Positions 5,995-24,407 of a stretch of 64,000 bases of DNA are shown here, one piece after another. Location: assembly GCF_003018235.1 (NCBI RefSeq), contig NZ_CP027437.1; one strand, 5' to 3'. The notes below the pieces were generated by a model that was not told the origin of the DNA, made no database searches, and saw only the letters and a program-made list of their open reading frames with translations. This stretch comes from Escherichia coli. Lineage in GTDB: Bacteria; Pseudomonadota; Gammaproteobacteria; Enterobacterales; Enterobacteriaceae. Position 1 is the first letter of the stretch; every line of letters starts with the position of its first letter. The position numbers were made by a program, and so were the translations under genes.

Positions 5995-6016
5995 TGAATT
6001 TGATAATCATTATCGT
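5995..6016. promoter_or_regulatory. Fur box candidate in the mntH promoter (tgaatttGATAATCATTATCg)
   Basis: GATAATCATTATC matches the Fur consensus core; position about 50 bp upstream of the mntH start. Confidence 0.6.
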
Positions 6017-6029
6017 TTGGCATAGCATG

Positions 6030-6051
6030 AAACATAGCAAAGGCTATGTTT
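6030..6051. promoter_or_regulatory. MntR operator candidate: palindrome AAACATAGC-AAAG-GCTATGTTT
   Basis: near-perfect inverted repeat immediately upstream of the mntH start codon. Confidence 0.6.
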
Positions 6052-6054
6052 TAG

Positions 6055-7302
<1,248 letters not shown>

Positions 7303-7330
7303 TTCAACTGGCGTCGTACCAGGCATCACT

Positions 7331-8702
<1,372 letters not shown>

Positions 8703-8723
8703 GTGCTCCATTGACGGACGCGT

Positions 8724-9050
8724 TTAATGGCGATGCCCATGTCCGCGGCCTTTTCCGCGATGATCGTCACGATCGCGCCAGCCTTCACGATAGCCACGCT
8801 CATACGCTTTACGCTTATCCCAGCCACGATGGTAGCCATTATCATGACGCCACCAGCGGTTCTTACGCCATTCATAATTGCGATGCCAGTAGTCACGGTC
8901 GCGCCAGTGACCACCGTCCCAGTAATTACCGTAATGATCGCGATCGCCAATTTGTAATTTGATTGATGGCAGTAGGGTGATTTCACCTGCGTTTGCCGCA
9001 AGCGGGGTAAATGCCATCAGGGCGGCCGCCAGAAACAGTGACCTGAACAT
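8724..9050 (-). CDS. ypeC: secreted low-complexity protein rich in His/Arg/Trp/Asp/Tyr (DUF2502-like), 108 aa
   Basis: ORF track; signal-peptide-like N-terminus [21 protein letters not shown]; synteny. Confidence 0.8.
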
Positions 9051-9164
9051 TGTTATTCTCCTTCACGATCGAAGCCGTCAGCGGCCTGTTAACGCAATAT
9101 TACGGGGAGGTAAAGCCCCGTATCATCGCCATAACTCTTAAATCATAAAGGAGAGCATTTTTTG

Positions 9165-10421
9165 CTAAACGTTATCGTGGGGTGGCTGTTGCTTCGGACG
9201 ATTGACCATCATCATCGGCTTACCTGCTAATAACAGCCAAGCCGGAAGCATGACGATACAGAGCAGCGGTAGCAATGTGGTATTGGGTACAACGACTGCC
9301 GCCATAAAAAGACTTAACCAGCCATCACGTGTTACCACCAGCACGATGCCGAGAATAGCGCAGGAAACGGTTATTGCCGCTGGAACGGCGGGTACGTGCT
9401 CATGCAGCATCAACCCTAATGCCACGCCGACAAACACTGCCGGGAAGATTCGCCCACCGCGAAAGCCACTGGCGGCAGCAACGACCAGGGCGGCAAGTTT
9501 AATTACCGCCAGCAAAAAGTAATCGCTGGTGCTGAAAGCCTGATTTGCCACCATCTGCTGCATCTCATCCAGCCCTTTAAACAGCGAAACTGGTCCACCA
9601 ATAACCCCCAGAATACCGAGAATAAATCCGCCAATACCCAGCACGAGCACCGGATTTTTTATTTGATGCATCATCGCGTGCAACCGTGGTAAGCACCATA
9701 CGGCGACCATCCCTGCTGCGATGGCAATCGCCGCGACAATTGCACCGCTGAGAATATCGGTCATTTCCATTTTTCCGTAATGCGCAATGGGCAGTGAAAA
9801 ATGGGGATGGAAAAATAATCCGGTAGTAAGTGCACCAGCTGCTGCCGCCATTAACGGCGCAAAAAGACGATCCCATAGCGGAACTTCACTACTACCATTT
9901 AAGGTTTGCGAAAATATCAACGCCGCCGCAACAGGTGTGCCAAACAGTGCGCCGATGGTGCCGGCAGAGGCTAAAATAGTCCACTCCATTCGGTTGACGC
10001 GCGGTAACAGACGAGCGCCAATGGCAACCGCAAGGGCGATATTGACGGTCATGATCGGATGTTCCGGCCCCAGGCTGACGCCGCCAGCAAGACCGAGAAT
10101 TAATGCTACGATAAGTCCAGGTAGCGCAGAGGGCGGAACCGGTGCGCCGATCAGCGGTTCACAGGCGGGGTCTGGTCCAGCATGCCCCTGGCTGAAACGG
10201 ATAACCAACCCCACCGCAATACCTGTTAGCGTTAATATGGCGATGATCCAGAAAGGTGAATCCTGAGCTATCCCCAGAGTTCCCGGCAGTCGTTGCCAGA
10301 GCAAATTCTGTAATACCGAGGCGATTTTCATCACCACAATCAGAATAAGACTGGACGCAATCCCAATTGCCACGGCGGGGAGCGATAATAACAACATGGT
10401 TCTGGCTCGCGGATGGAGCAT
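9165..10421 (-). CDS. yfeO: ClC-type voltage-gated chloride channel family membrane protein, 418 aa
   Basis: ORF track; polytopic membrane protein; synteny next to glk. Confidence 0.8.
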
Positions 10422-10624
10422 GTTCTATTCCTTATGCGGGGTCAGATACTTAGTTTGCCCAGCTTGCAAAAAGGCATCGCTGCAATTGGTGCTGAAACGA
10501 TAAAGTAATTGTGTGACCCAGATCGATATTTACAGGGAGCCTGCCTTTCCGGCGTTGTTGTTATGCCCCCAGGTATTTACAGTGTGAGAAAGAATTATTT
10601 TGACTTTAGCGGAGCAGTTGAAGA

Positions 10625-11590
10625 ATGACAAAGTATGCATTAGTCGGTGATGTGGGCGGCACCAACGCACGTCTTGCTCTGTGTGATATTGCCAGTGGTG
10701 AAATCTCGCAGGCTAAGACCTATTCAGGGCTTGATTACCCCAGCCTCGAAGCGGTCATTCGCGTTTATCTTGAAGAACATAAGGTCGAGGTGAAAGACGG
10801 CTGTATTGCCATCGCTTGCCCAATTACCGGTGACTGGGTGGCAATGACCAACCATACCTGGGCGTTCTCAATTGCCGAAATGAAAAAGAATCTCGGTTTT
10901 AGCCATCTGGAAATTATTAACGATTTTACCGCTGTATCGATGGCGATCCCGATGCTGAAAAAAGAGCATCTGATTCAGTTTGGTGGCGCAGAACCGGTCG
11001 AAGGTAAGCCTATTGCGGTTTACGGTGCCGGAACGGGGCTTGGGGTTGCGCATCTGGTCCATGTCGATAAGCGTTGGGTAAGCTTGCCAGGCGAAGGCGG
11101 TCACGTTGATTTTGCGCCGAATAGTGAAGAAGAGGCCATTATCCTCGAAATACTGCGTGCAGAAATTGGTCATGTTTCGGCAGAGCGCGTGCTTTCTGGC
11201 CCTGGGCTGGTGAATTTGTATCGGGCAATTGTGAAAGCCGACAACCGCCTGCCAGAAAATCTCAAGCCAAAAGATATTACCGAACGCGCGCTGGCTGATA
11301 GCTGCACCGATTGCCGCCGCGCGTTGTCGCTGTTTTGCGTCATTATGGGACGTTTTGGCGGCAATCTGGCGCTCAATCTCGGGACATTTGGCGGCGTGTT
11401 TATTGCGGGCGGTATCGTGCCGCGCTTCCTTGAGTTCTTCAAAGCCTCCGGTTTCCGTGCCGCATTTGAAGATAAAGGGCGCTTTAAAGAATATGTCCAT
11501 GATATTCCGGTGTATCTCATCGTCCATGATAATCCGGGCCTTCTCGGTTCCGGTGCACATTTACGCCAGACCTTAGGTCACATTCTGTAA
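10625..11590 (+). CDS. glk: glucokinase, 321 aa
   Basis: ORF track; [19 protein letters not shown] recalled as E. coli Glk. Confidence 0.9.
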
Positions 11591-11808
11591 ATCCTTCCTG
11601 TTATATCGGGAGATAACTCTCCCGATAATCTTTTAAATCATACAGTTAATTCAATTTTTCTTTGTGTCCCCTCACAAGGCCGACCTGCGTCACACTTCCG
11701 TACAGCGGGATTAATTCTCCAGTAAATGCATTATTTGTCTGGTAACGGCGATTTGTTTTGCACGTTCATAATTTCACTCGTCAACTATCACTGAACGAGG
11801 AATTAACG

Positions 11809-12135
11809 ATGAGTAAGAAACTGATTGCTTTATGTGCCTGCCCGATGGGTCTGGCTCACACCTTTATGGCCGCTCAGGCGCTGGAAGAAGCGGCGGTGGA
11901 AGCAGGCTATGAAGTGAAAATTGAAACTCAGGGCGCGGACGGCATCCAGAATCGCCTGACCGCGCAGGATATCGCCGAAGCGACCATCATCATCCACTCC
12001 GTGGCGGTTACCCCGGAAGATAACGAACGTTTCGAATCACGCGACGTTTATGAAATCACTTTGCAGGACGCAATTAAAAACGCTGCGGGCATCATCAAAG
12101 AAATCGAAGAGATGATTGCCTCTGAACAACAGTAA
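11809..12135 (+). CDS. fryB: PTS fructose-like EIIB component, 108 aa (ORF extends to 11758)
   Basis: ORF track; CACPMGLAHTFMAA PTS IIB-Fru-type motif. Confidence 0.8.
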   Translation: MSKKLIALCACPMGLAHTFMAAQALEEAAVEAGYEVKIETQGADGIQNRLTAQDIAEATIIIHSVAVTPEDNERFESRDVYEITLQDAIKNAAGIIKEIEEMIASEQQ

Positions 12136-12156
12136 TATTCGACAGGGATAATTGTT

Positions 12157-13404
12157 ATGGCCATTAAAAAACGCAGTGCAACCGTTGTGCCTGGCGCATC
12201 CGGTGCGGCAGCGGCAGTTAAGAATCCGCAGGCCTCTAAAAGCAGCTTCTGGGGTGAACTCCCGCAGCATGTGATGTCAGGGATTTCACGCATGGTGCCG
12301 ACCTTAATTATGGGCGGTGTGATCCTCGCTTTCAGCCAGCTTATTGCTTATAGCTGGCTTAAAATTCCTGCTGATATCGGCATCATGGATGCTCTTAATA
12401 GCGGGAAATTCTCCGGTTTCGACCTTTCCTTACTGAAATTTGCCTGGCTGTCGCAGTCCTTCGGCGGCGTGTTGTTTGGTTTCGCCATTCCGATGTTTGC
12501 CGCTTTTGTGGCGAACTCTATCGGCGGCAAACTGGCGTTCCCGGCTGGTTTTATTGGCGGCTTGATGTCTACCCAGCCGACGCAACTGCTGAACTTCGAT
12601 CCCAGCACTATGCAATGGGCGACCTCTTCGCCGGTGCCGTCCACCTTCATTGGTGCGCTGATTATTTCTATCGTTGCTGGTTACCTTGTGAAATGGATGA
12701 ACCAGAAAATCCAGTTACCGGATTTCCTGTTAGCGTTCAAAACCACTTTTTTGCTACCGATTCTTTCCGCCATTTTTGTCATGCTGGCGATGTACTACGT
12801 CATTACCCCCTTTGGCGGCTGGATCAACGGCGGTATCCGTACCGTGCTGACTGCCGCAGGTGAGAAGGGCGCGCTAATGTATGCGATGGGGATCGCCGCG
12901 GCGACAGCAATCGACCTTGGTGGCCCGATCAACAAAGCCGCAGGTTTCGTTGCCTTCAGCTTTACCACGGACCACGTATTACCGGTCACCGCACGTTCTA
13001 TCGCTATCGTTATTCCGCCGATTGGTCTGGGTCTGGCGACCATTATTGACCGTCGTTTAACCGGCAAACGCCTGTTCAACGCTCAACTTTATCCGCAGGG
13101 TAAGACCGCGATGTTCCTGGCCTTTATGGGGATTAGTGAGGGTGCGATTCCGTTTGCGCTGGAAAGCCCCATCACCGCCATCCCGTCGTATATGGTCGGC
13201 GCGATTGTCGGCTCAACTGCAGCTGTCTGGCTGGGCGCAGTGCAATGGTTCCCGGAATCCGCTATCTGGGCATGGCCGCTGGTCACTAACCTGGGCGTCT
13301 ATATGGCGGGGATCGCGCTGGGGGCAGTCATTACTGCGCTGATGGTGGTGTTCCTGCGTCTGATGATGTTCCGTAAAGGCAAATTGTTAATCGATAGCCT
13401 GTAA
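12157..13404 (+). CDS. fryC: PTS fructose-like EIIC permease, 415 aa
   Basis: ORF track; polytopic membrane protein; operon context. Confidence 0.8.
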
Positions 13405-13418
13405 GAAGGAAAATCCAG

Positions 13419-14504
13419 ATGACATTACTCGCTTCGCTGCGTGACTGGCTTAAGGCGCAACAACTGGATGCGGTGCTTCTCTCCTCACGGCAGAACAAAC
13501 AGCCGCATCTGGGGATCTCCAGCGGATCAGGCTATGTGGTGATTAGCCGTGAAAGTGCGCACATTCTGGTGGACTCGCGCTATTACGCGGATGTCGAAGC
13601 CCGCACGCAAGGTTACCAGCTACATTTGCTTGACGCGACGCACACGCTTGCAACCATCGTCAATAAAATCATTGCCGATGAGCAGTTGCAAACGCTCGGT
13701 TTTGAAGGCCAGCAGGTAAATTGGGAAACCGCGCACCGCTGGCAGTCTGAACTCAATGCGAAACTGGTAAGCGCCACGCCGGATGTGCTGCGGCAAATCA
13801 AAACGCCAGAGGAGGTGGAGAAAATCCGCCTCGCCTGTGGGATTGCCGATCGCGGAGCGGAGCATATTCGCCGCTTTATTCAGGCGGGGATGAGCGAATG
13901 CGAGATTGCTGCTGAACTGGAGTGGTTTATGCGCCAGCAGGGCGCAGAAAAAGCCTCTTTCGATACCATTGTCGCCAGTGGCTGGCGTGGGGCGCTGCCG
14001 CACGGCAAAGCCAGCGACAAGATTGTTGCAGCGGGCGAGTTTGTCACTCTCGATTTCGGTGCGCTGTATCAGGGTTACTGCTCTGATATGACGCGTACCT
14101 TGCTTGTGAATGGCGAAGGGGTGAGCGCCGAATTTCACCCGCTGTTTGACGTCTATCAGATTGTTTTGCAGGCACAGCTCGCAGCAATCTCCTCGATTCG
14201 CCCCGGCGTGCGCTGCCAGCAGGTTGACGACGCCGCGCGCCGGGTCATTACAGAAGCAGGTTATGGCGACTATTTCGGTCATAACACCGGTCATGCTATC
14301 GGTATTGAAGTCCATGAAGATCCGCGTTTTTCACCGCGGGACACCACGACGCTACAGCCAGGCATGTTACTGACCGTGGAGCCGGGGATTTATTTGCCAG
14401 GGCAAGGGGGCGTGCGCATCGAAGATGTTGTGCTGGTCACCCCGCAAGGCGCAGAAGTGCTCTACGCCATGCCGAAAACAGTGTTGCTCACGGGAGAGGC
14501 ATAA
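13419..14504 (+). CDS. ypdF: Xaa-Pro aminopeptidase (M24 family), 361 aa
   Basis: ORF track; synteny; stop overlaps the ypdE start (TAATG). Confidence 0.8.
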
Positions 14505-15541
14505 TGGATTTATCGTTATTAAAAGCGTTGAGCGAGGCAGATGCGATCGCCTCCTCGGAACAGGAAGTGCGGCAGATCCTGCTGGAAGAAGCGGATCGCC
14601 TGCAAAAAGAAGTGCGATTTGACGGCCTGGGATCGGTGCTGATCCGCCTCAATGAATCGACAGGTCCGAAGGTGATGATCTGTGCGCATATGGATGAAGT
14701 GGGATTTATTGTACGCAGCATCTCCCGCGAAGGGGCGATCGATGTGTTGCCGGTTGGCAATGTACGCATGGCTGCCCGCCAGCTTCAGTCGGTGCGTATC
14801 ACTACCCGTGAAGAGTGCAAAATTCCAGGCCTGCTTGACGGCGACCGGCAGGGGAATGACATCAGCGCCATGCGCGTGGACATTGGTGCGCGCTCGTATG
14901 ACGAAGTGATGCAGGCGGGAATTCGTCCAGGCGATCGCGTCACCTTTGATACAACTTTTCAGGTTCTCCCTCACCAGCGGGTGATGGGGAAAGCCTTTGA
15001 TGATCGCCTCGGTTGCTATCTGCTGGTGACGTTACTACGTGAGCTGCACGACGCCGAACTGCCTGCGGAGGTGTGGCTGGTGGCCAGCTCCAGCGAAGAG
15101 GTGGGATTACGCGGCGGGCAAACCGCTACCCGTGCGGTTTCACCGGACGTTGCGATTGTGCTGGATACCGCCTGCTGGGCGAAAAACTTTGATTATGGCG
15201 CGGCTAACCATCGCCAGATTGGTAACGGCCCGATGCTGGTATTAAGCGACAAGTCGCTGATTGCGCCGCCAAAACTTACCGCGTGGATTGAAACCGTGGC
15301 GGCAGAAATTGGCGTGCCGTTACAGGCAGATATGTTCAGCAACGGCGGCACGGACGGTGGAGCGGTGCATTTAACTGACACCGGCGTACCCACGGTGGTG
15401 ATGGGGCCAGCGACGCGCCACGGACATTGTGCGGCATCGATTGCCGATTGCCGCGACATTTTGCAGATGCAGCAACTTTTATCTGCCCTTATTCAACGTC
15501 TTACCCGTGAGACGGTTGTTCAACTGACGGATTTCAGATGA
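14504..15541 (+). CDS. ypdE: M42-family aminopeptidase, 345 aa
   Basis: ORF track; synteny. Confidence 0.8.
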
Positions 15542-15565
15542 TCTCCTGATTAACCCGGAGCGGTT

Positions 15566-18061
15566 ATGTTAACGATTCAATTTCTCTGTCCTTTGCCTAA
15601 CGGTATTCATGCTCGTCCGGCGTGGGAACTTAAAGAACAGTGCAGCCAGTGGCAAAGCGAAATCACTTTTATTAACCATCGCCAGAACGCAAAGGCCGAT
15701 GCGAAAAGTTCGCTGGCGCTGATTGGTACCGGCACTTTATTTAATGACAGTTGCAGCCTGAACATTAGCGGCAGCGATGAAGAGCAGGCGCGGCGCGTGC
15801 TGGAAGAGTACATCCAGGTGCGCTTTATCGACAGCGACAGCGTCCAGCCAACGCAGGCAGAACTGACGGCGCATCCGCTGCCGCGTTCATTAAGCCGTCT
15901 GAATCCTGATTTATTGTACGGCAATGTGCTGGCAAGCGGCGTCGGCGTGGGTACGCTGATCCTGTTACAGAGCGACAGCCTCGACAGTTACCGGGCGATC
16001 CCCGCCAGTGCGCAAGATTCCACCCGGCTGGAGCACAGCCTGGCAACGCTTGCCGAGCAACTGAACCAGCAGCTGCGTGAGCGTGACGGCGAAAGCAAAA
16101 CTATCCTCAGCGCCCATTTGTCGCTGATTCAGGATGATGAATTTGCAGGCAATATCCGTCGCCTTATGGCAGAACAGCATCAGGGACTGGGGGCGGCGAT
16201 CATCAGCAATATGGAGCAGGTTTGCGCCAAACTATCTGCTTCTGCCAGCGATTATCTGCGCGAGCGGGTCAGCGACATTCGCGATATCAGCGAACAGTTG
16301 CTGCATATCACCTGGCCGGAACTGAAGCCGCGCAACAATCTGGTGCTGGAAAAACCGACTATTCTGGTGGCCGAGGATTTAACCCCAAGCCAGTTTTTGA
16401 GCCTCGATTTAAAAAATCTTGCGGGCATGATTCTGGAGAAAACCGGGCGCACCTCGCATACCCTGATTCTGGCCCGCGCCTCGGCGATCCCGGTACTAAG
16501 TGGCTTGCCGCTGGATGCGATCGCGCGCTATGCCGGGCAACCGGCGGTGCTTGACGCCCAGTGCGGCGTGCTGGCGATTAATCCTGATGACGCGGTGAGC
16601 GGTTATTATCAGGTTGCGCAGACGCTGGCAGATAAACGTCAGCAGCAGCAGGCGCAGGCTGCCGCGCAGCTGGCCTATTCCCGTGATAACAAGCGCATTG
16701 ATATCGCGGCGAATATTGGCACCGCTCTGGAAGCGCCTGGCGCGTTTGCCAACGGCGCGGAAGGCGTCGGGCTGTTCCGTACCGAAATGCTCTATATGGA
16801 TCGCGACAGCGCGCCGGACGAGCAGGAGCAATTTGAAGCCTACCAGCAGGTGCTACTGGCAGCGGGCGACAAGCCGATTATCTTCCGCACAATGGACATC
16901 GGAGGCGATAAAAGCATTCCTTATCTGAATATTCCCCAGGAAGAGAACCCGTTCCTCGGCTATCGTGCGGTACGAATTTACCCGGAATTTGCTGGCCTGT
17001 TCCGCACTCAACTGCGGGCTATTTTGCGCGCCGCCAGTTTCGGCAACGCCCAGCTGATGATCCCGATGGTTCACAGCCTCGATCAGATCTTATGGGTGAA
17101 GGGTGAGATCCAAAAAGCGATCGTTGAGCTTAAACGCGATGGTCTGCGTCATGCAGAGACGATTACGCTGGGTATCATGGTGGAAGTGCCGTCGGTGTGC
17201 TACATCATCGATCACTTCTGCGATGAGGTCGATTTCTTCAGTATCGGTTCTAACGATATGACCCAGTATCTGTATGCGGTTGATCGTAATAACCCGCGCG
17301 TATCGCCGCTGTATAACCCGATTACGCCATCGTTCCTGCGCATGTTGCAGCAGATTGTTACCACTGCGCATCAGCGGGGTAAATGGGTAGGTATTTGCGG
17401 TGAACTGGGCGGTGAAAGCCGTTATCTGCCGCTACTGCTTGGGCTGGGCCTGGACGAGTTAAGTATGAGTAGCCCGCGCATTCCGGCGGTGAAAAGCCAG
17501 CTTCGTCAACTGGATAGCGAGGCGTGTCGGGAACTGGCGCGTCAGGCGTGTGAATGTCGCAGCGCGCAGGAGATTGAAGCGTTACTCACCGCCTTTACGC
17601 CGGAAGAAGACGTTCGCCCGCTGCTGGCGCTGGAGAATATCTTCGTTGATCAGGCCTTTAGCAATAAAGAGCAGGCGATCCAGTTCCTGTGCGGTAACCT
17701 CGGCGTTAACGGGCGCACTGAACATCCGTTCGAGCTGGAAGAGGATGTCTGGCAACGGGAAGAGATTGTTACCACCGGCGTTGGTTTTGGCGTAGCGATC
17801 CCGCACACCAAATCTCAGTGGATCCGTCATTCCAGTATCAGCATTGCCCGGCTGGTGAAACCGGTTGACTGGCAGTCAGAAATGGGCGAAGTCGAACTGG
17901 TGATCATGCTGACGCTGGGTGCTAACGAAGGGATGAACCATGTGAAAGTCTTCTCGCAGCTGGCGTGTAAACTGGTGAATAAAAACTTCCGCCAGTCGTT
18001 GTTTGCCGCGCAAGATGCACAAAGCATCCTGACGCTGCTGGAAACAGAATTAACCTTCTGA
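15566..18061 (+). CDS. fryA: PTS multiphosphoryl transfer protein (HPr-like, EI-like and EIIA-Fru-like domains), 831 aa
   Basis: ORF track; domain-like segments recognisable; synteny. Confidence 0.8.
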   Translation: MLTIQFLCPLPNGIHARPAWELKEQCSQWQSEITFINHRQNAKADAKSSLALIGTGTLFNDSCSLNISGSDEEQARRVLEEYIQVRFIDSDSVQPTQAELTAHPLPRSLSRLNPDLLYGNVLASGVGVGTLILLQSDSLDSYRAIPASAQDSTRLEHSLATLAEQLNQQLRERDGESKTILSAHLSLIQDDEFAGNIRRLMAEQHQGLGAAIISNMEQVCAKLSASASDYLRERVSDIRDISEQLLHITWPELKPRNNLVLEKPTILVAEDLTPSQFLSLDLKNLAGMILEKTGRTSHTLILARASAIPVLSGLPLDAIARYAGQPAVLDAQCGVLAINPDDAVSGYYQVAQTLADKRQQQQAQAAAQLAYSRDNKRIDIAANIGTALEAPGAFANGAEGVGLFRTEMLYMDRDSAPDEQEQFEAYQQVLLAAGDKPIIFRTMDIGGDKSIPYLNIPQEENPFLGYRAVRIYPEFAGLFRTQLRAILRAASFGNAQLMIPMVHSLDQILWVKGEIQKAIVELKRDGLRHAETITLGIMVEVPSVCYIIDHFCDEVDFFSIGSNDMTQYLYAVDRNNPRVSPLYNPITPSFLRMLQQIVTTAHQRGKWVGICGELGGESRYLPLLLGLGLDELSMSSPRIPAVKSQLRQLDSEACRELARQACECRSAQEIEALLTAFTPEEDVRPLLALENIFVDQAFSNKEQAIQFLCGNLGVNGRTEHPFELEEDVWQREEIVTTGVGFGVAIPHTKSQWIRHSSISIARLVKPVDWQSEMGEVELVIMLTLGANEGMNHVKVFSQLACKLVNKNFRQSLFAAQDAQSILTLLETELTF

Positions 18062-18063
18062 CG

Positions 18064-18921
18064 TTAGCCCTGAAAACGGGCGCTGTACTCTCCCGGCGTC
18101 AGACCAAACTGACGCCGGAAAACGCGACAAAAATAGTCGCTATCCGGAAAACCGCAACGCTGTGCCACTTCATGAATTGACAGATGATATTTCTGCAAAA
18201 TCATCCTCGCCTTCGCCATTCGCACCCAACGCACATACTCGATAAAACGCATCGTTCCATGCTGAGCAAACAGTTTTGACAGATGATTGGGCGTGATATT
18301 AAAAAACTGCGCCACGCTCTCGCGGGTGAGCGGCTGGGCATAATTATCCTGAACCCAGTTACAAATGCTGTGATAGAGAAAATCGCTGCGCGGCTGCGAA
18401 TTGCCCGGTGGCATATTCACCACGTTGCGGCAAAGATGCAGCAAACTTAACACCAGTGGCTGAATGATATTCTGCTCCAGCGGTGAACGGCTAAGATGGG
18501 TGAGGGCAGTAAGCATTGCTTCACCTTCGCCGCGTTGCAGGCTGGGAAGCTGGATCTGGCGAGCAGGATGCAACAACGACGTGGTACGGCTATCGTAAAA
18601 CGATAACCCAAGCCAGGTCGGTGCGAACACCAGGCTTAACAGCATCACCGGTTTGTTGTTGATCGGTAAATTAGCCGCGCGCGCTGGAATAAACAGCATT
18701 TCTCCTTCAACCATACGTTGCTGCTTTGCTTCCAGCAGATTGCCGTATTCGCCGCGCAGCACGATATCCAGACGGGGAAAATCAATACATAAACTGCCCA
18801 CCGGTAACGAGGCAGGCTGGCTGGCAAACCAGACGCGCCCCAGTAGTTGCGGGTTAAGCACCAGGCCGCTGAACAGATCGGCGAAAAATTGTTGATCGGC
18901 GGGCAAGCCTGGTGCTTTCAT
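18064..18921 (-). CDS. ypdC: AraC-family transcriptional regulator, 285 aa
   Basis: ORF track; C-terminal AraC-type HTH; synteny. Confidence 0.8.
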   Translation of the reverse strand: MKAPGLPADQQFFADLFSGLVLNPQLLGRVWFASQPASLPVGSLCIDFPRLDIVLRGEYGNLLEAKQQRMVEGEMLFIPARAANLPINNKPVMLLSLVFAPTWLGLSFYDSRTTSLLHPARQIQLPSLQRGEGEAMLTALTHLSRSPLEQNIIQPLVLSLLHLCRNVVNMPPGNSQPRSDFLYHSICNWVQDNYAQPLTRESVAQFFNITPNHLSKLFAQHGTMRFIEYVRWVRMAKARMILQKYHLSIHEVAQRCGFPDSDYFCRVFRRQFGLTPGEYSARFQG

Positions 18922-18933
18922 GAAAGTTCCCGA

Positions 18934-19668
18934 TTAAAGATGCATTAACTGGCGGAATTCTTTAACTTTGCTGCGGCTGACTGGCACTTCAAAATCCAGA
19001 TCTTTCAGCCGCAGAATGTAGGTGTTATTAAACCACGGTTCGATCTCGCGGATTTTGTTCAGATTGACACAAAATGAGCGATGGCAGCGGAAAAAATGCG
19101 ACGGCGGCAGCTTGCTGCAAAACTCGGTAATGTTCATCGGCATTACGTAGGATTCACGCCGCGTATAGACAAAGGTCATTTTCTCATGCGCTTCGGCGTA
19201 ATAGATATCGTTAATTGGCGTGACGATGATTCGCTCATCTTTCACCAGATTAATGGTGTCATTCTCACGCGTTACCGTCGTGGCAGGCGTACTGCTGGTC
19301 TGCTGTTGTTGCCAGGCTGCTTCCAGTTTTTGTAGCATCCCGGTAATGCGTGACTCCTGATACGGTTTGAGAATGTAGTCAAACGCCTCCAGTTCAAACG
19401 CTTCTACCGCATGTTCTTTCCATGCGGTGATAAACACAATAAACGGTTTATGGGCGAACTGGCTGATGTTTTGCGCCAGCAACACACCGTCCAGCGACGG
19501 AATATTGATATCCAGAAAAATGGCGTCGACGCGGTTATGCTGCAAAAACTTCAACACGTCCAGACCGTCGTCAAAGGTGCCGACAATCTCCATCTGGCTG
19601 TGCTCTTTAATTAGCCAGCTCAGTTCCTGTTGTGCCAGGAATTCGTCTTCAACAATGATGACTTTCAC
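18934..19668 (-). CDS. ypdB: LytTR-family response regulator, about 244 aa (GTG start inferred; ORF extends to 19686)
   Basis: ORF track; receiver plus LytTR domains; partner of ypdA. Confidence 0.75.
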   Translation of the reverse strand: MKVIIVEDEFLAQQELSWLIKEHSQMEIVGTFDDGLDVLKFLQHNRVDAIFLDINIPSLDGVLLAQNISQFAHKPFIVFITAWKEHAVEAFELEAFDYILKPYQESRITGMLQKLEAAWQQQQTSSTPATTVTRENDTINLVKDERIIVTPINDIYYAEAHEKMTFVYTRRESYVMPMNITEFCSKLPPSHFFRCHRSFCVNLNKIREIEPWFNNTYILRLKDLDFEVPVSRSKVKEFRQLMHL

Positions 19669-19682
19669 AATATCACTCCGGC

Positions 19683-21380
19683 TCAAAGCAATAACGTAGC
19701 CTGTGAGGCGACTGGGGTGCGTTGGTTAGGAATGTAAAACGCAATTTCCGTCCCCGGTTCCAGGCGGCGGATATGCAGCCCCTCGCCATACAATAACTTC
19801 ACGCGATGATGGACATTCAGCAGGCCAATTTTATTGCCCGGCATTTCGTTCGCTTCGACCCGCTCAATCACCTTTGGATCGATGCCGTGCCCGGTATCTC
19901 GCACCGCAATACGTACCCGATTACCGCACTCTGCAACGCTGATGGTGACAACGCCTTTACCTTTGCAAGGCTGGATACCGTGGACAATGGCGTTTTCCAC
20001 CAACGGCTGGATCAGCAGGCTGGGAATGCAGCAATTCACCTCTTCATCAATATCATAGATAACCGTCAGCTTGTCGCCAAAGCGGGCCTGCTCAATGGCA
20101 ATATAGTCTTTAATTTGATACAGCTCTTTTTTGATATCGATTTGCTCATCGTCTTTTAATTCAATGTTATAGCGCAGATAACGCGACAGATTAAAGATCA
20201 GCTGGCGAGCGGTATCCGGATTCAGACGGATTGACGATGAAATAGCGTTCAAAGCGTTAAACAGGAAATGGGGATTAATTTTGCTTTGCAGGGCGCGAAG
20301 CTCTGCCTTATTTGCCATTTCACGTAGCTGCTCGGCGCGTGAAACCTCCAGTTGCGTGGAGATGATTTGCGACAGACCGACCGCCATTTCCTGTAATGAT
20401 GACGTAATCTGATGCGCGTGGCAGTAGTAAATTTTCAGTGTTCCGGTCACAACGCCTTTCTCCCACAATGGGATCACCAGCATGGAATGAATCTCTGGTG
20501 TGCGGTGGGCTTCATCATTGTTTTTAATGATGATTTTTCCGTAATTCATCGCCTGTCGGGTAGTCGGGCTAATGAAGTCATCGCCATTCTGATAGTTGTG
20601 TTCACCCACGCCAACATAGGCCAGCACATGATCGGTATTGGTAATCGCCACCGCATCGGCATGAATATCATCGCGGATAATTTCACAAACTTTGCGTAAT
20701 GACTCGCTATTGACATGGCGAAACAGCGGCAGCGTTTTGTTGGCGATATCCAGCGCCAGCTTGGCCTGCCGCGCGGCGCTGGCCTCTTTTTCGCCCTCAA
20801 CGCTTTGCACCAGCAGCACAATAAAGCCGATACAGACGCTACCGAGGATCATCGGAATCCCGATTTTAGAGACGATATCGATCCCCAACGCGGTAGTTGG
20901 TGCCCAGACAATCACCAGAATCATGGTCAACGTTTCACATAACATGCCGCCGAGAATACCGACGCGCCAGCGCTGTGCTTTGGGGATTTTCAGGTTGATC
21001 CAGCCCGATATACAACCCGCCAGAATGCTGGTGATAAAGCAGGGGATCGCCGTCACGCCGCCGATATCAATTAAATACCGGTGAATACCCGCAATCACGC
21101 CGGTAATGATGCCTACCCACGGGCCAAACAGAATCCCGCCTGACATCACCGCGATAATACGAACGTTCACTAGCGAGCCTTCTACGGGAACGCCGGACCA
21201 GGTGCTGAACAGGGCGAACAGCGAGAAAATGGCGGTAACAGCGAGCAGCTCTTTTGGGGAGTGCGCCGACTTGTGCAACAGTTCGCGAAACAGGCGGATA
21301 CGGATGAGAAAGAACAGGCAGATAAGCATTAACGCTGCCCGATCGAAGACCGCCAGCAGCATGTTGAATATTTCGTGCAC
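19683..21380 (-). CDS. ypdA: LytS-type sensor histidine kinase, 565 aa
   Basis: ORF track; 5TM-LYT N-terminus, GAF and HATPase regions; synteny. Confidence 0.8.
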
Positions 21381-21756
21381 GGGTGACTCTGAATAAGGAT
21401 TAAACCTCTATGATAGGTAACCTGAAGGCTGATGACCAGCAGGCCGTTTTTGAGGAAAAACCACAATTTTAAAAGGGGATTGAAAGATAAATGGTGTATT
21501 AGCAATGCATCTCTTGATAATGCACATCTGCTTGGTAAATTTATTGAAATTATAATGTTAATAAAATGAGTGGTAATTTTCTTGTTAGCGCAGATAAATT
21601 TCCTGTTTTTGAAGTGGAGTTCCTCATTTAAAGCCATTGATAAAAATGTTCTAAAACGCTGGACAGACAGAAATTAATCAGGCTATTTTCAAAACAGCCA
21701 CCATCGTGGCAGCGTCGCTCGGACGGTCCGGGCGCTAACGTTAATCTGAGGAAATT

Positions 21757-22995
21757 ATGGCTGACACTCGCCTTGAACGTCGCTTTACGCGCATTGATCG
21801 TCTCCCGCCCTACGTTTTTAATATTACCGCTGAACTGAAAATGGCTGCGCGTCGGCGCGGCGAAGATATTATCGATTTCAGTATGGGTAACCCGGACGGT
21901 GCGACTCCGCCGCATATCGTCGAAAAATTATGTACGGTGGCCCAGCGACTGGACACGCATGGTTACTCTACTTCACGCGGCATTCCGCGGTTACGTCGCG
22001 CCATTTCCCGCTGGTATCAGGATCGCTACGACGTCGAGATCGACCCGGAATCAGAAGCCATCGTCACCATTGGTTCGAAAGAGGGACTGGCGCATCTGAT
22101 GCTGGCGACGCTGGATCATGGTGACACTGTACTGGTGCCTAATCCAAGCTACCCGATTCATATTTACGGCGCGGTGATTGCCGGGGCGCAGGTACGCTCA
22201 GTGCCGCTGGTGGAAGGTGTCGATTTCTTCAACGAACTGGAACGCGCCATTCGCGAAAGTTATCCGAAACCGAAGATGATGATCCTCGGCTTCCCGTCGA
22301 ATCCAACCGCGCAATGCGTGGAGCTGGAGTTCTTCGAAAAGGTTGTGGCGCTGGCGAAACGCTACGATGTGCTGGTGGTCCATGACCTGGCCTATGCGGA
22401 CATCGTCTATGATGGCTGGAAAGCGCCGTCAATCATGCAGGTGCCGGGTGCACGCGATGTGGCGGTCGAGTTCTTTACGCTGTCGAAAAGCTACAACATG
22501 GCGGGCTGGCGTATCGGCTTTATGGTTGGCAACAAAACGCTGGTCAGCGCGCTGGCACGTATTAAAAGCTATCACGATTACGGCACCTTTACGCCGTTGC
22601 AGGTGGCAGCGATTGCGGCGCTGGAGGGCGATCAACAGTGCGTGCGCGACATTGCTGAACAGTACAAACTCCGCCGTGATGTACTGGTAAAAGGGCTGCA
22701 TGAAGCGGGCTGGATGGTCGAAATGCCGAAGGCTTCGATGTATGTCTGGGCGAAAATCCCGGAACCGTATGCTGCCATGGGCTCGCTGGAATTTGCCAAG
22801 AAGCTGCTGAACGAAGCGAAGGTCTGTGTCTCTCCGGGGATTGGCTTTGGCGACTACGGCGACACGCATGTTCGCTTTGCACTGATTGAAAACCGCGACC
22901 GTATTCGTCAGGCGATTCGTGGAATTAAAGCGATGTTCCGTGCCGACGGTTTATTACCCGCCAGCAGCAAACATATTCACGAAAACGCGGAATAA
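21757..22995 (+). CDS. alaC: glutamate-pyruvate aminotransferase (PLP-dependent), 412 aa
   Basis: ORF track; class I aminotransferase; synteny (yfdZ). Confidence 0.85.
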
Positions 22996-23012
22996 ACACC
23001 GACCTCAAAAAT

Positions 23013-23045
23013 GCAAACAGGAGCCTGATGGCTCCTGTTTTTCAT
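23013..23045. terminator. bidirectional Rho-independent terminator after alaC
   Basis: stem aaacaggagcc / ggctcctgttt with loop tgat, T-run downstream and A-run upstream. Confidence 0.7.
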
Positions 23046-23059
23046 TGCACAGTTTGCTT

Positions 23060-23131
23060 TTAGATCATCAGGGCAAAAGTACCGGCCCAAACGATGACCA
23101 TAAAAGAAATGCCCATAAAGAAATATTTCAC
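23060..23131 (-). CDS. ypdK: 23-aa small hydrophobic protein, (V/M)KYFFMGISFMVIVWAGTFALMI, apparent GTG start
   Basis: manual minus-strand translation; matches my recollection of K-12 YpdK; below the ORF-track size cutoff. Confidence 0.6.
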   Translation of the reverse strand: MKYFFMGISFMVIVWAGTFALMI

Positions 23132-23486
23132 TTTACATCTCTCCGCGTAATTACTGTTACGCCTGAATGACTTCATTACACCTGATACAGTGAGTTGACA
23201 CCGGGCAAAACGACCTTAAAAGTCCTGTATTCTACCGTGGGCATCACCCCAGAATTCTGAGCTAAACTGCTCCAGACGGCGCTAATGTACGCCTAAAACT
23301 GAAACGAGACAAGAGGCATTTTCTTATTTACTTTTAGTAACTTACAGGTGTCTCATATCGGCGACAGTTTAATTTCTGACGGTAATAATTAGAGATTCAG
23401 CGAAGGAAAAAACCTTAAGAAAAAAGCCATAAAAACCATGAGGTTATTATGGCTGATTTGAGGAGGGAAAGAGTTAGAGCAGTTTG

Positions 23487-24407
23487 TTAAATGTATAGCG
23501 ACGATTCTCCCACCGGGCGCGTTTTAAAGCGACGGTGGATCCAGAGGTACTGCTCCGGTGCGCGCATGATCTCTTTTTCGATAATCTTGTTCATATAGGC
23601 AGCGGCTTGATTTTCATCTGCCGGGTAGCCTTCCATCTCTGGGGTGATGTACAAACGATATCCGCTGTAATCCGCTTTTCTTACCATCGTTACGGTTAAC
23701 ATGGCTGCGCCAGAGAGACGTGAAAGGACATACGTACCATTGGTTGTGGCGACATTTTCCACCGCAAAGAACGGCGCGAAGGAGCTGCCTTTACGACCAT
23801 AATCCTGATCGGGAGCAAACCATACCGCTTCACCTTTCTTCAGTGCACCGACAATGCCGCGCAGATTATTTCTGCCGATCATCGCTTTGTTAGAGCGCAT
23901 GCGCCCACGGGTCTGCACCCATTCCATCAGCTGATTATTATGTGGACGATAGGTAGCCATCATTGGTTGGCACAGTCCCATCACGCGGCCGCCCAGCTCC
24001 AGCGACATAAAATGGACGCCGACAACCATTACGCCGCGATTTTGCATTTGTGCGCGTTTAAGGTTATCCAACCCTTCAACATCAAACCATTTACGTACGC
24101 GACTGTCGGGCCAGAACCACGCCATGCCGGTTTCTACCAGCGCCATGCCGAGTGAACGAAAGTTTTCGGCAATCATCTTCTCGCGTTCTTCCGCAGAATG
24201 CTGTGGGAAACAAAGTTCCAGGTTTTTACGGGCGATAGATTCACGCCGTTTCAGGAATGGTCGCGCCATTGCGCCAATACGCGTGCCGAGAAAGCAGAGA
24301 ACAGGATAAGGAAGCTGTACCCAAAGCCAGAGTACACCAAGCCCAAACCATGTGAGCCAGTAGCGAGGATGTAGAAACTCGCGGGAAAATTTGCATTGTG
24401 GAAACAT
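23487..24407 (-). CDS. lpxP: lipid A palmitoleoyltransferase (cold-induced), 306 aa (ORF extends to 24473)
   Basis: ORF track; recalled LpxP; start taken at MFPQCKF. Confidence 0.85.
   Translation of the reverse strand: MFPQCKFSREFLHPRYWLTWFGLGVLWLWVQLPYPVLCFLGTRIGAMARPFLKRRESIARKNLELCFPQHSAEEREKMIAENFRSLGMALVETGMAWFWPDSRVRKWFDVEGLDNLKRAQMQNRGVMVVGVHFMSLELGGRVMGLCQPMMATYRPHNNQLMEWVQTRGRMRSNKAMIGRNNLRGIVGALKKGEAVWFAPDQDYGRKGSSFAPFFAVENVATTNGTYVLSRLSGAAMLTVTMVRKADYSGYRLYITPEMEGYPADENQAAAYMNKIIEKEIMRAPEQYLWIHRRFKTRPVGESSLYI

Follow-up and report, generated by a model that had tools for sequence, protein, structure and literature searches.

A gene order retained across phyla couples the phosphotransferase system of the Escherichia coli fry operon to aminopeptidase genes

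The fryBC-ypdFE-fryA operon of Escherichia coli encodes a phosphotransferase system (PTS) and two aminopeptidases. We analysed this operon, with its regulator gene ypdC, in a stretch of 64,000 nucleotides from the E. coli contig NZ_CP027437.1 (the window), where the five genes occupy positions 11809-18061. The operon is already known and named. New here are a cassette found across phyla, which consists of a PTS and an M24 peptidase gene with or without genes for an M42 peptidase and a PatB-family lyase, an alternative form of the locus with a glycoside hydrolase family 38 (GH38) gene, and a conserved operator. Also new is the assignment of ypdC to the module and of ypdAB to its surroundings. 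The order IIB-IIC-M24(-M42) of the genes for enzymes IIB and IIC of the PTS and the peptidases is retained across phyla, which indicates that the transporter and the peptidases are coupled. We propose, with a probability of roughly 0.55, that the operon encodes a self-contained PTS importing a sugar with an amino-acyl or peptidyl part, which would then be trimmed by the peptidases.

A scan for FryC, with one genome per species, yielded 80 loci, in which the window proteins were mapped by tblastn and the neighbouring open reading frames (ORFs) were clustered. Seventy-six of these loci, from Enterobacterales, Firmicutes and Rahnella, had more than 2.6 kb of sequence after the IIC gene and were informative. 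A lack of co-conservation of the peptidase genes with fryABC would, according to the initial annotation, have counted against the observation, but they are co-conserved: a YpdF-like M24 gene directly follows the FryC-type IIC gene at 61 of the 76 informative loci, and at 47 of the 76 it is followed in turn by a YpdE-like M42 gene. None of the 76 has the M42 gene without the M24 gene. In the Enterobacterales, the order fryB-fryC-ypdF-ypdE-fryA was intact wherever the contig was long enough, in Escherichia, Citrobacter, Salmonella, Kluyvera, Enterobacter, Lelliottia, Pluralibacter, Superficieibacter, Hafnia and Serratia. Clostridia, Erysipelotrichia and related bacteria have genes for a PRD/Mga-type regulator, IIA, IIB, IIC, M24, M42 and a PatB-family C-S lyase. 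Other loci, including that of C. difficile, have an M20 PepV-like dipeptidase, regulator, IIA, IIB, IIC, M24 and PatB, and the order in Rahnella is LacI, M20, IIB, IIC, M24. Overall, the PatB-family C-S lyase occurs in 23 non-enterobacterial FryC loci (TIGR04350, 340-360 bits) and the M20 dipeptidase in 12. Literature searches found no description of the Firmicute PTS-M24-M42-PatB cassette. A PfkB kinase, an ABC transporter, ProRS and a racemase were considered as conserved Firmicute neighbours and rejected, being inconsistent between loci. The Firmicute FryC loci end in a gene for a class I/II PLP enzyme, and the E. coli alanine transaminase gene alaC (21757-22995, just past ypdA) was likewise rejected as an orthologue of this Firmicute aminotransferase gene, with 20-27% identity; the Firmicute gene is of the PatB family, and the adjacency of alaC in E. 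coli is probably coincidental. One locus, titled Chryseobacterium sp. 18061, is Enterobacter-like, with FryB and FryA 87% and 76% identical to the window proteins and with citrate-transporter-like and RNase T2 genes upstream; this assembly is probably contaminated or mislabelled.

Of the 15 informative loci without the M24 gene, 14 have a GH38 alpha-mannosidase gene in that position and one has PatB alone. In the GH38 loci (L038, L039, L041, L058, L060, L061, L064-L066, L068, L069, L071, L073 and L076), the genes for IIA, IIB and IIC are followed by an MngB-like GH38 gene; at L068 the PTS genes are also tandemly duplicated. The GH38 protein matches the MngB model end to end (960 bits) and is 35% identical to MngB of E. 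coli K-12. No GH38 gene was found in the window operon among the ORFs or by Pfam. A class I mannose-6-phosphate isomerase gene adjoins five peptidase-type FryC loci. Neighbour-joining of the IIC proteins placed the Firmicute clade with M24, M42 and PatB as sister to the enterobacterial one, with GH38-type and peptidase-type loci interleaved in the tree.

The association is also seen when the M42 peptidase is taken as the anchor. YpdE was searched against 1.84 billion representative proteins and the genomic context of its relatives was looked up. Outside the Enterobacterales, the five nearest informative relatives (P0126, P0127, P0128, P0132 and P0134; 41-44% identity) are all PTS-linked: two lie in the order IIA-IIB-IIC-M24-M42-aminotransferase, and three adjoin a lactose/cellobiose-family PTS. 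One of these three, on the metagenome contigs L087 (positions 6001-12624) and L088, has in succession genes for a PRD regulator, M42, IIA, IIB, IIC, M24, PatB (360 bits) and alanine dehydrogenase. One YpdE relative, at 38% identity, had no PTS link. In K-12, all three M42 paralogues are encoded in PTS operons, YpdE in fry, FrvX in frvABXR and SgcX in sgcXBCQAER. YpdE is 42% identical to the Firmicute PTS-linked M42 protein, compared to 34% for FrvX and 31% for SgcX. These comparisons indicate that the pairing of PTS and peptidase is recurrent and ancient and not accidental. The initial annotation had called the pairing of a sugar PTS with peptidases unusual, which holds in general, but for M42 peptidases it recurs.

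The identity of the window operon is clear. Among 5426 complete E. coli genomes, 5415 matched 80% or more of the 6.25-kb stretch. The best full-length match, in strain AST215, had 100% coverage and 98.4% nucleotide identity, with proteins 96-100% identical. Matching E. coli genomes are annotated fryB, fryC, ypdF, ypdE and 'ptsP' (fryA), and the five-gene order at the glk-ypdC locus, together with near-identical sequence, marks this as the E. coli fry operon. In genes, order, lengths and spacing it agrees with fryBC-ypdFE-fryA (b2387-b2383) with ypdC (b2382) of K-12, from which it does not differ in any essential way. The gene identities and order given in the initial annotation were thus borne out by the ORFs, by the family assignments, for which Pfam and NCBIfam were used, and by the E. 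coli annotation. The tight packing it described was also found, with gaps of 21, 14, -1 and 24 bases between successive genes, as was the TAATG overlap, where ypdF stops and ypdE starts at gcaTAATGgat with base 14504 common to both. The five genes have been described as one transcription unit that is mildly induced by Cpx (PMC2731931). This assignment, the spacing and the single conserved promoter suggest that all five are carried on one transcript.

All the operon genes are on the plus strand, and three of them encode the PTS. The fryB gene (11809-12135) encodes a fructose-type enzyme IIB of 108 aa. FryB scored 71 bits against Pfam PTS_IIB (cut-off 23.6), is 100% identical to FryB of E. coli, and carries the phosphorylation-site motif CACPMGLAHT at residues 9-18, which fits CPxGxAHT and includes the phosphorylatable Cys11. 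The fryC gene (12157-13404) encodes a IIC permease of 415 aa that scored 51.8 against Pfam PTS_EIIC (cut-off 30.7). FryC shares 50-67% identity with Firmicute and fusobacterial IIC proteins, compared to just 27-29% with FrwC, MngA and FrvB of K-12. Given this low identity to the other fructose-family permeases of K-12, FryC and its cross-phylum relatives form a distinct IIC subfamily. The fryA gene (15566-18061) encodes a multiphosphoryl transfer protein of 831 aa with five Pfam domains, in which HPr occupies residues 6-84, enzyme I (EI; N-terminal, mobile His and phosphoenolpyruvate (PEP)-binding domains) residues 119-650, and fructose-type IIA residues 687-826. It is the HPr-EI-IIA fusion, with the domain order given in the initial annotation. 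The motifs GIHARPA (HPr His15), GRTSHTLILAR (EI His), GICGE (EI) and VAIPH (IIA His) are present in FryA, so that all phosphorylation-site motifs of the FryA/FryB chain are intact, and the operon is predicted to encode a complete private phosphotransfer chain. FryA is 45% identical to its K-12 paralogue PtsA (b3947), whose gene adjoins frwCBD; as RefSeq calls fryA 'ptsP', it is easy to mix up fryA, ptsA and ptsP.

The other two genes encode the peptidases. The ypdF gene (13419-14504) encodes an M24B Xaa-Pro-type aminopeptidase of 361 aa with the Pfam domains Creatinase_N and Peptidase_M24. YpdF scored 807 bits against the equivalog model NF007310 (cut-off 393) and matched PDB entry 5CNX, 'Aminopeptidase YpdF' of E. 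coli, with E = 2e-232. Its metal ligands D212, D223, H292, E321 and E335 are present and were kept in 56 of 57 M24 relatives. The ypdE gene (14504-15541) encodes an M42 aminopeptidase (Pfam Peptidase_M42) of 345 aa, which scored 677 bits against the equivalog model NF007421 (cut-off 412) and matched PDB entry 1YLO (Shigella SF2450) with E = 7e-223. The ligand and catalytic residues H62, D64, D166, E198, E199, D221 and H308 were kept in all 44 M42 relatives. YpdF and YpdE, both of which have solved structures, are cytoplasmic metallo-aminopeptidases with intact metal sites. The activity of YpdE has been characterised, the protein is dodecameric, and the 'cellulase' annotations of M42 proteins are wrong (PMC3511314). 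Many YpdE entries of E. coli and Shigella (P0025 and similar) have 318-319 residues, having lost residues 72-98 in frame. The 27 lost residues fall between two 'VR' repeats and all metal ligands are retained; the window encodes the full 345-residue form. YpdE relatives of 700-790 residues, considered as M24-M42 fusions, proved to be tandem M42-M42 proteins. A link of YpdF to thioproline was also dropped, as the source paper uses YpdF solely as an outgroup clade.

In the mechanism that we propose, the phosphoryl group would pass from PEP to the EI domain of FryA, then to its HPr and IIA domains, to Cys11 of FryB and on to the substrate in FryC. FryBC would thereby import and phosphorylate a hexose bearing an amino-acyl or peptidyl group, and YpdF and YpdE would hydrolyse the peptide or amide bonds of the imported compound in the cytoplasm. 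The hexose might perhaps be mannose-like, since GH38 substitutes for the peptidases at some loci and mannose-6-phosphate isomerase lies near some peptidase-type loci. In Firmicutes, the PatB-type C-S/beta-lyase would complete the breakdown; it could detach the sugar phosphate from a Ser or Cys residue through beta-elimination, or it might just degrade released cysteine conjugates. At the sister loci, a GH38 enzyme of the 6-phospho-mannosidase type would replace the peptidases, for a mannoside with no amino-acid part.

Several points weigh against this proposal. The main gap in the model is that neither Pfam nor the annotation shows, in the E. coli operon, a glycosidase, deglycase, kinase or lyase that could split the sugar from the amino acid. 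Conservation of gene order is evidence of coupling and not of mechanism. FryC scored 157.5 against TIGR01427, the fructose subfamily, just under the cut-off of 157.55. No FryABC substrate was found described in the literature searches. The peptidase assays in a 2005 paper, 'Characterization of two new aminopeptidases in Escherichia coli', were reportedly done with plain peptide substrates. The literature treats YpdE and YpdF as ordinary aminopeptidases (YpdE: PMC3511314), and ChIP-exo under laboratory conditions detected no sites for YpdC (PMC8464067). In line with the initial annotation, a 2017 paper lists the substrate as unknown and reports that a 48-bp in-frame deletion in fryA led to better growth following prolonged culture in LB (PMC5364489), and a 2023 review still names fryB and fryC 'fructose-like' (PMC10305011).

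The treatment of both enzymes as ordinary aminopeptidases, the absence of an enzyme cleaving a sugar-amino-acid bond and the many redundant peptidases of E. coli would all suit a different explanation, in which the peptidases are unrelated passengers serving general peptide turnover and the PTS takes up a plain fructose- or mannose-like sugar. We consider this unlikely. The order IIB-IIC-M24(-M42) has been kept from E. coli to Clostridia, at a FryC identity of 50-67%, although regulators and phosphocarriers were exchanged, and the set of M42, M24 and PatB is also attached to a second PTS family. Moreover, the PTS linkage of the nearest M42 relatives and the greater similarity of YpdE to its counterparts in Firmicute operons than to its E. 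coli paralogues do not fit with passengers.

The upstream boundary of the fry unit is a terminator-like hairpin after glk (11604-11627, plus strand), a perfect inverted repeat with a 10-bp stem, a 4-nt loop and a T-rich tail. Alignment of 19 sequences upstream of fryB revealed one conserved block amid otherwise unalignable DNA. The elements upstream of fryB in the window are all on the plus strand. A conserved box, GTCACACTTCC (11689-11699), would be the distal part of an activator site, and an operator-like block, TCCAGTAAATGCATTATTTGTCTGGTAAC (11718-11746), abuts the -35 position and is a putative site for the AraC-type YpdC; a TCCAG...CTGGTAAC block is a candidate element for regulation by YpdC. 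The -10 hexamer CATAAT (11767-11772) lies 20 nt past the operator block and is kept across genera as cATAaT, and a Shine-Dalgarno sequence precedes the fryB ATG. TCACA.TTC was kept in all 27 enterobacterial loci of the operator-aligned set, irrespective of the upstream neighbour. TCCAGTAAATGCATTATTTGTCTGGTAAC occurs once in the window, with 0 occurrences expected in shuffled sequence. Each of the 27 loci has exactly one copy of the degenerate operator pattern, always before fryB, approximately 60-140 nt from the start codon and in most loci approximately 60-90 nt from it. A consensus scan before fryB found no sigma-70 promoter with a good -35 element. The lack of a consensus -35 and the placement of the operator at this position fit a promoter that needs an activator bound there. 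YpdC has HTH_18 and HTH_AraC domains, and we infer that it may activate the fry transcript through the putative site at 11689-11746 when an inducer is present. Internal promoters and terminators were no more frequent in the operon than in shuffled sequence, and no riboswitch or leader RNA was matched in Rfam in 10000-23500 with E values up to 0.1. A CRP site in the fry promoter was rejected, as the spacing of TGTGT-N4-TCACA is wrong.

Beyond fryA lie ypdC (18064-18921), encoding an AraC-family regulator with HTH_18 and HTH_AraC domains, ypdB (18934-19668/19686), encoding a LytTR response regulator, and ypdA (19683-21380), encoding a histidine kinase. The initial annotation had named these neighbours correctly and placed them immediately downstream of the operon; however, they are on the minus strand, converging on fryA, and are not downstream in the sense of transcription. 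Only 2 bases separate the stop codons of the convergent fryA and ypdC genes (18059-18066), and no terminator-like hairpin lies there, so that transcripts from each side would read antisense into the other gene. Of 32 informative enterobacterial loci, 29 have ypdC beside the fry genes, among them the loci without ypdAB and glk; in 28 of these 29 it is convergent after fryA. The ypdAB genes are present in just 11 loci. The six-gene block adjoins glk in Escherichia, Citrobacter, Salmonella and Kluyvera; in Enterobacter, Lelliottia and Pluralibacter its neighbours are dcuC and an RNase T2 gene. The operator and the -10 element are retained in both settings. The two chromosomal settings and the presence of ypdAB in only 11 loci indicate that the six-gene block moves as a unit, with ypdAB and glk outside it. 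YpdAB is thus only a lineage-specific neighbour. It responds to pyruvate and acts on yhjX, with no link to fry reported (PMC5552118).

This arrangement bears on a second alternative, that the FryABC chain is regulatory in the manner of the nitrogen PTS. It would then sense the ratio of PEP to pyruvate and adjust the activity of the peptidases or the expression of genes, which would accord with the neighbouring pyruvate sensor YpdAB. FryA has its own EI, so that the chain does not depend on PtsI and HPr, the operon lacks any enzyme of sugar catabolism, and ypdABC, with the pyruvate-responsive YpdAB, is adjacent, all of which would be in keeping with such a role. However, most genera that keep the module have no ypdAB, the sister loci join the same transporter to an MngB-like GH38 enzyme and mannose-6-phosphate isomerase, and FryC is a full-length IIC permease under strong constraint (dN/dS 0.03-0.05). 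A regulatory chain therefore seems rather improbable.

To assess constraint on the operon as a whole, we compared the ratios of nonsynonymous to synonymous substitution (dN/dS) against Citrobacter and Salmonella. The values were 0.016-0.018 for fryB, 0.028-0.049 for fryC, 0.052-0.063 for fryA, 0.067-0.076 for ypdE and 0.133 for ypdF, with 0.027-0.038 for the comparison gene glk. These ratios indicate that all five genes are under purifying selection, and the operon, perhaps silent in the laboratory, is not decaying. Within E. coli, ypdF and fryA are approximately twice as divergent as the flanking genes glk (10625-11590) and ypdA. Median identity to the window was ~95.7% for ypdF and ~95.9% for fryA, compared to ~98.3% for glk and ~97.8% for ypdA, and the records below 95% identity numbered 1766, 1145, 0 and 4, respectively. 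The ypdF allele of the window is rare, with 3 records at 99% identity or more. This divergence could reflect codon drift at low expression or old recombining alleles. In Escherichia sp. MOD1-EC7003, a species representative, ypdE is interrupted (L005, ~12348-13330) and the best match covers 46%, and in Citrobacter amalonaticus S646 fryA is shortened (51%; L013, ~13411 onward) and ypdC is absent; these look like sporadic, lineage-specific losses.

That the operon is a silent evolutionary relic drifting to loss in E. coli is very unlikely: the lack of a known expression condition or phenotype in K-12, the missing consensus -35, the divergence of ypdF and fryA, the 27-residue YpdE deletion of some strains and the defects in single Escherichia and Citrobacter genomes would agree with it, but 5415 of 5426 complete genomes have an intact operon, dN/dS is low throughout (0.016-0.133), all catalytic and phosphorylation residues and, across genera, the promoter and operator are retained, and a ypdE deletion mutant of uropathogenic E. 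coli (UPEC) UTI89 was outcompeted in the bladder of mice (competitive index 0.30; PMC8767336).

The fry operon has partial parallels in known systems. The cryptic E. coli operons frvABXR and sgcXBCQAER resemble fry in combining a PTS enzyme II with an M42 paralogue and in having no known substrate, and FrvR is a PRD-type regulator, as found in the Firmicute FryC loci. They differ from fry in lacking an M24 gene and a fused EI-HPr-IIA protein, and sgc encodes a galactitol-family PTS. The mannosylglycerate system mngR-mngA-mngB pairs a fructose-family PTS for a hexose glycoside with a cytoplasmic GH38 alpha-mannosidase, which releases the sugar phosphate; fry has peptidases in place of GH38, and FryC is 27% identical to the IIC part of MngA. 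Precedents for the uptake of sugar-amino-acid compounds are frl of E. coli, for fructoselysine, and gfr of Salmonella, for gluco- and fructoselysine, the latter by a PTS. These systems use mannose-family PTSs or permeases with a kinase or deglycase and are not known to include peptidases. Neither fructosamine kinase nor SIS-type deglycase domains were found by Pfam and NCBIfam in the five fry products. A PatB/MalY-family C-S lyase is combined with a PTS in malX-malY of E. coli and in the C. difficile operon CD3027-CD3030, which contains MalY (PMC6143707), and in Staphylococcus hominis, in the thioalcohol pathway of PepA and PatB, such a lyase is paired with an M20 dipeptidase that acts on Cys-Gly conjugates (PMC7385124). 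PatB also occurs in the Firmicute FryC loci, and so in some of them does a PepV-like M20 dipeptidase. In contrast, the enterobacterial fry operon has no C-S lyase, the PTS of malXY is of the glucose family, and malXY, CD3027-CD3030 and PepA with PatB all lack the combination of M24 and M42. The FryC locus L072 was considered as the C. difficile MalY operon CD3027-CD3030, but judged by gene order they appear to be different loci.

The substrates of the 'cryptic' PTS operons of K-12, fry, frv, frw and sgc, have been unknown since the operons were named. The coupling of PTS and peptidases across phyla, the exchange of the peptidases for GH38 and the C-S lyase of the Firmicute loci narrow down the candidates to conjugates of a sugar, possibly mannose, with an amino acid or a peptide. 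The substrate may come from the host, as ypdE is a reported fitness gene of UPEC in the bladder. Experimental handles are YpdC and its putative operator at 11689-11746 and, in Firmicutes, the PRD regulators. A wider and more tentative possibility, which we hold at less than even odds, is that the FryC-type PTS and a parallel lactose-family PTS, with their cassette of M24 and M42 (and PatB, M20 and alanine dehydrogenase), represent an undescribed pathway for the import and breakdown of glycosylated amino acids or short glycopeptides that is widespread in gut Firmicutes and Enterobacterales. Its substrates might be O- or S-hexosyl (mannosyl) Ser or Cys peptides or N-aminoacyl amino sugars, the peptidases trimming the peptide and the Firmicute lyase yielding sugar phosphate, pyruvate and ammonia. 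If true, this would constitute a new class of PTS substrates and would explain why all three M42 peptidases of E. coli are encoded in 'cryptic' PTS operons.

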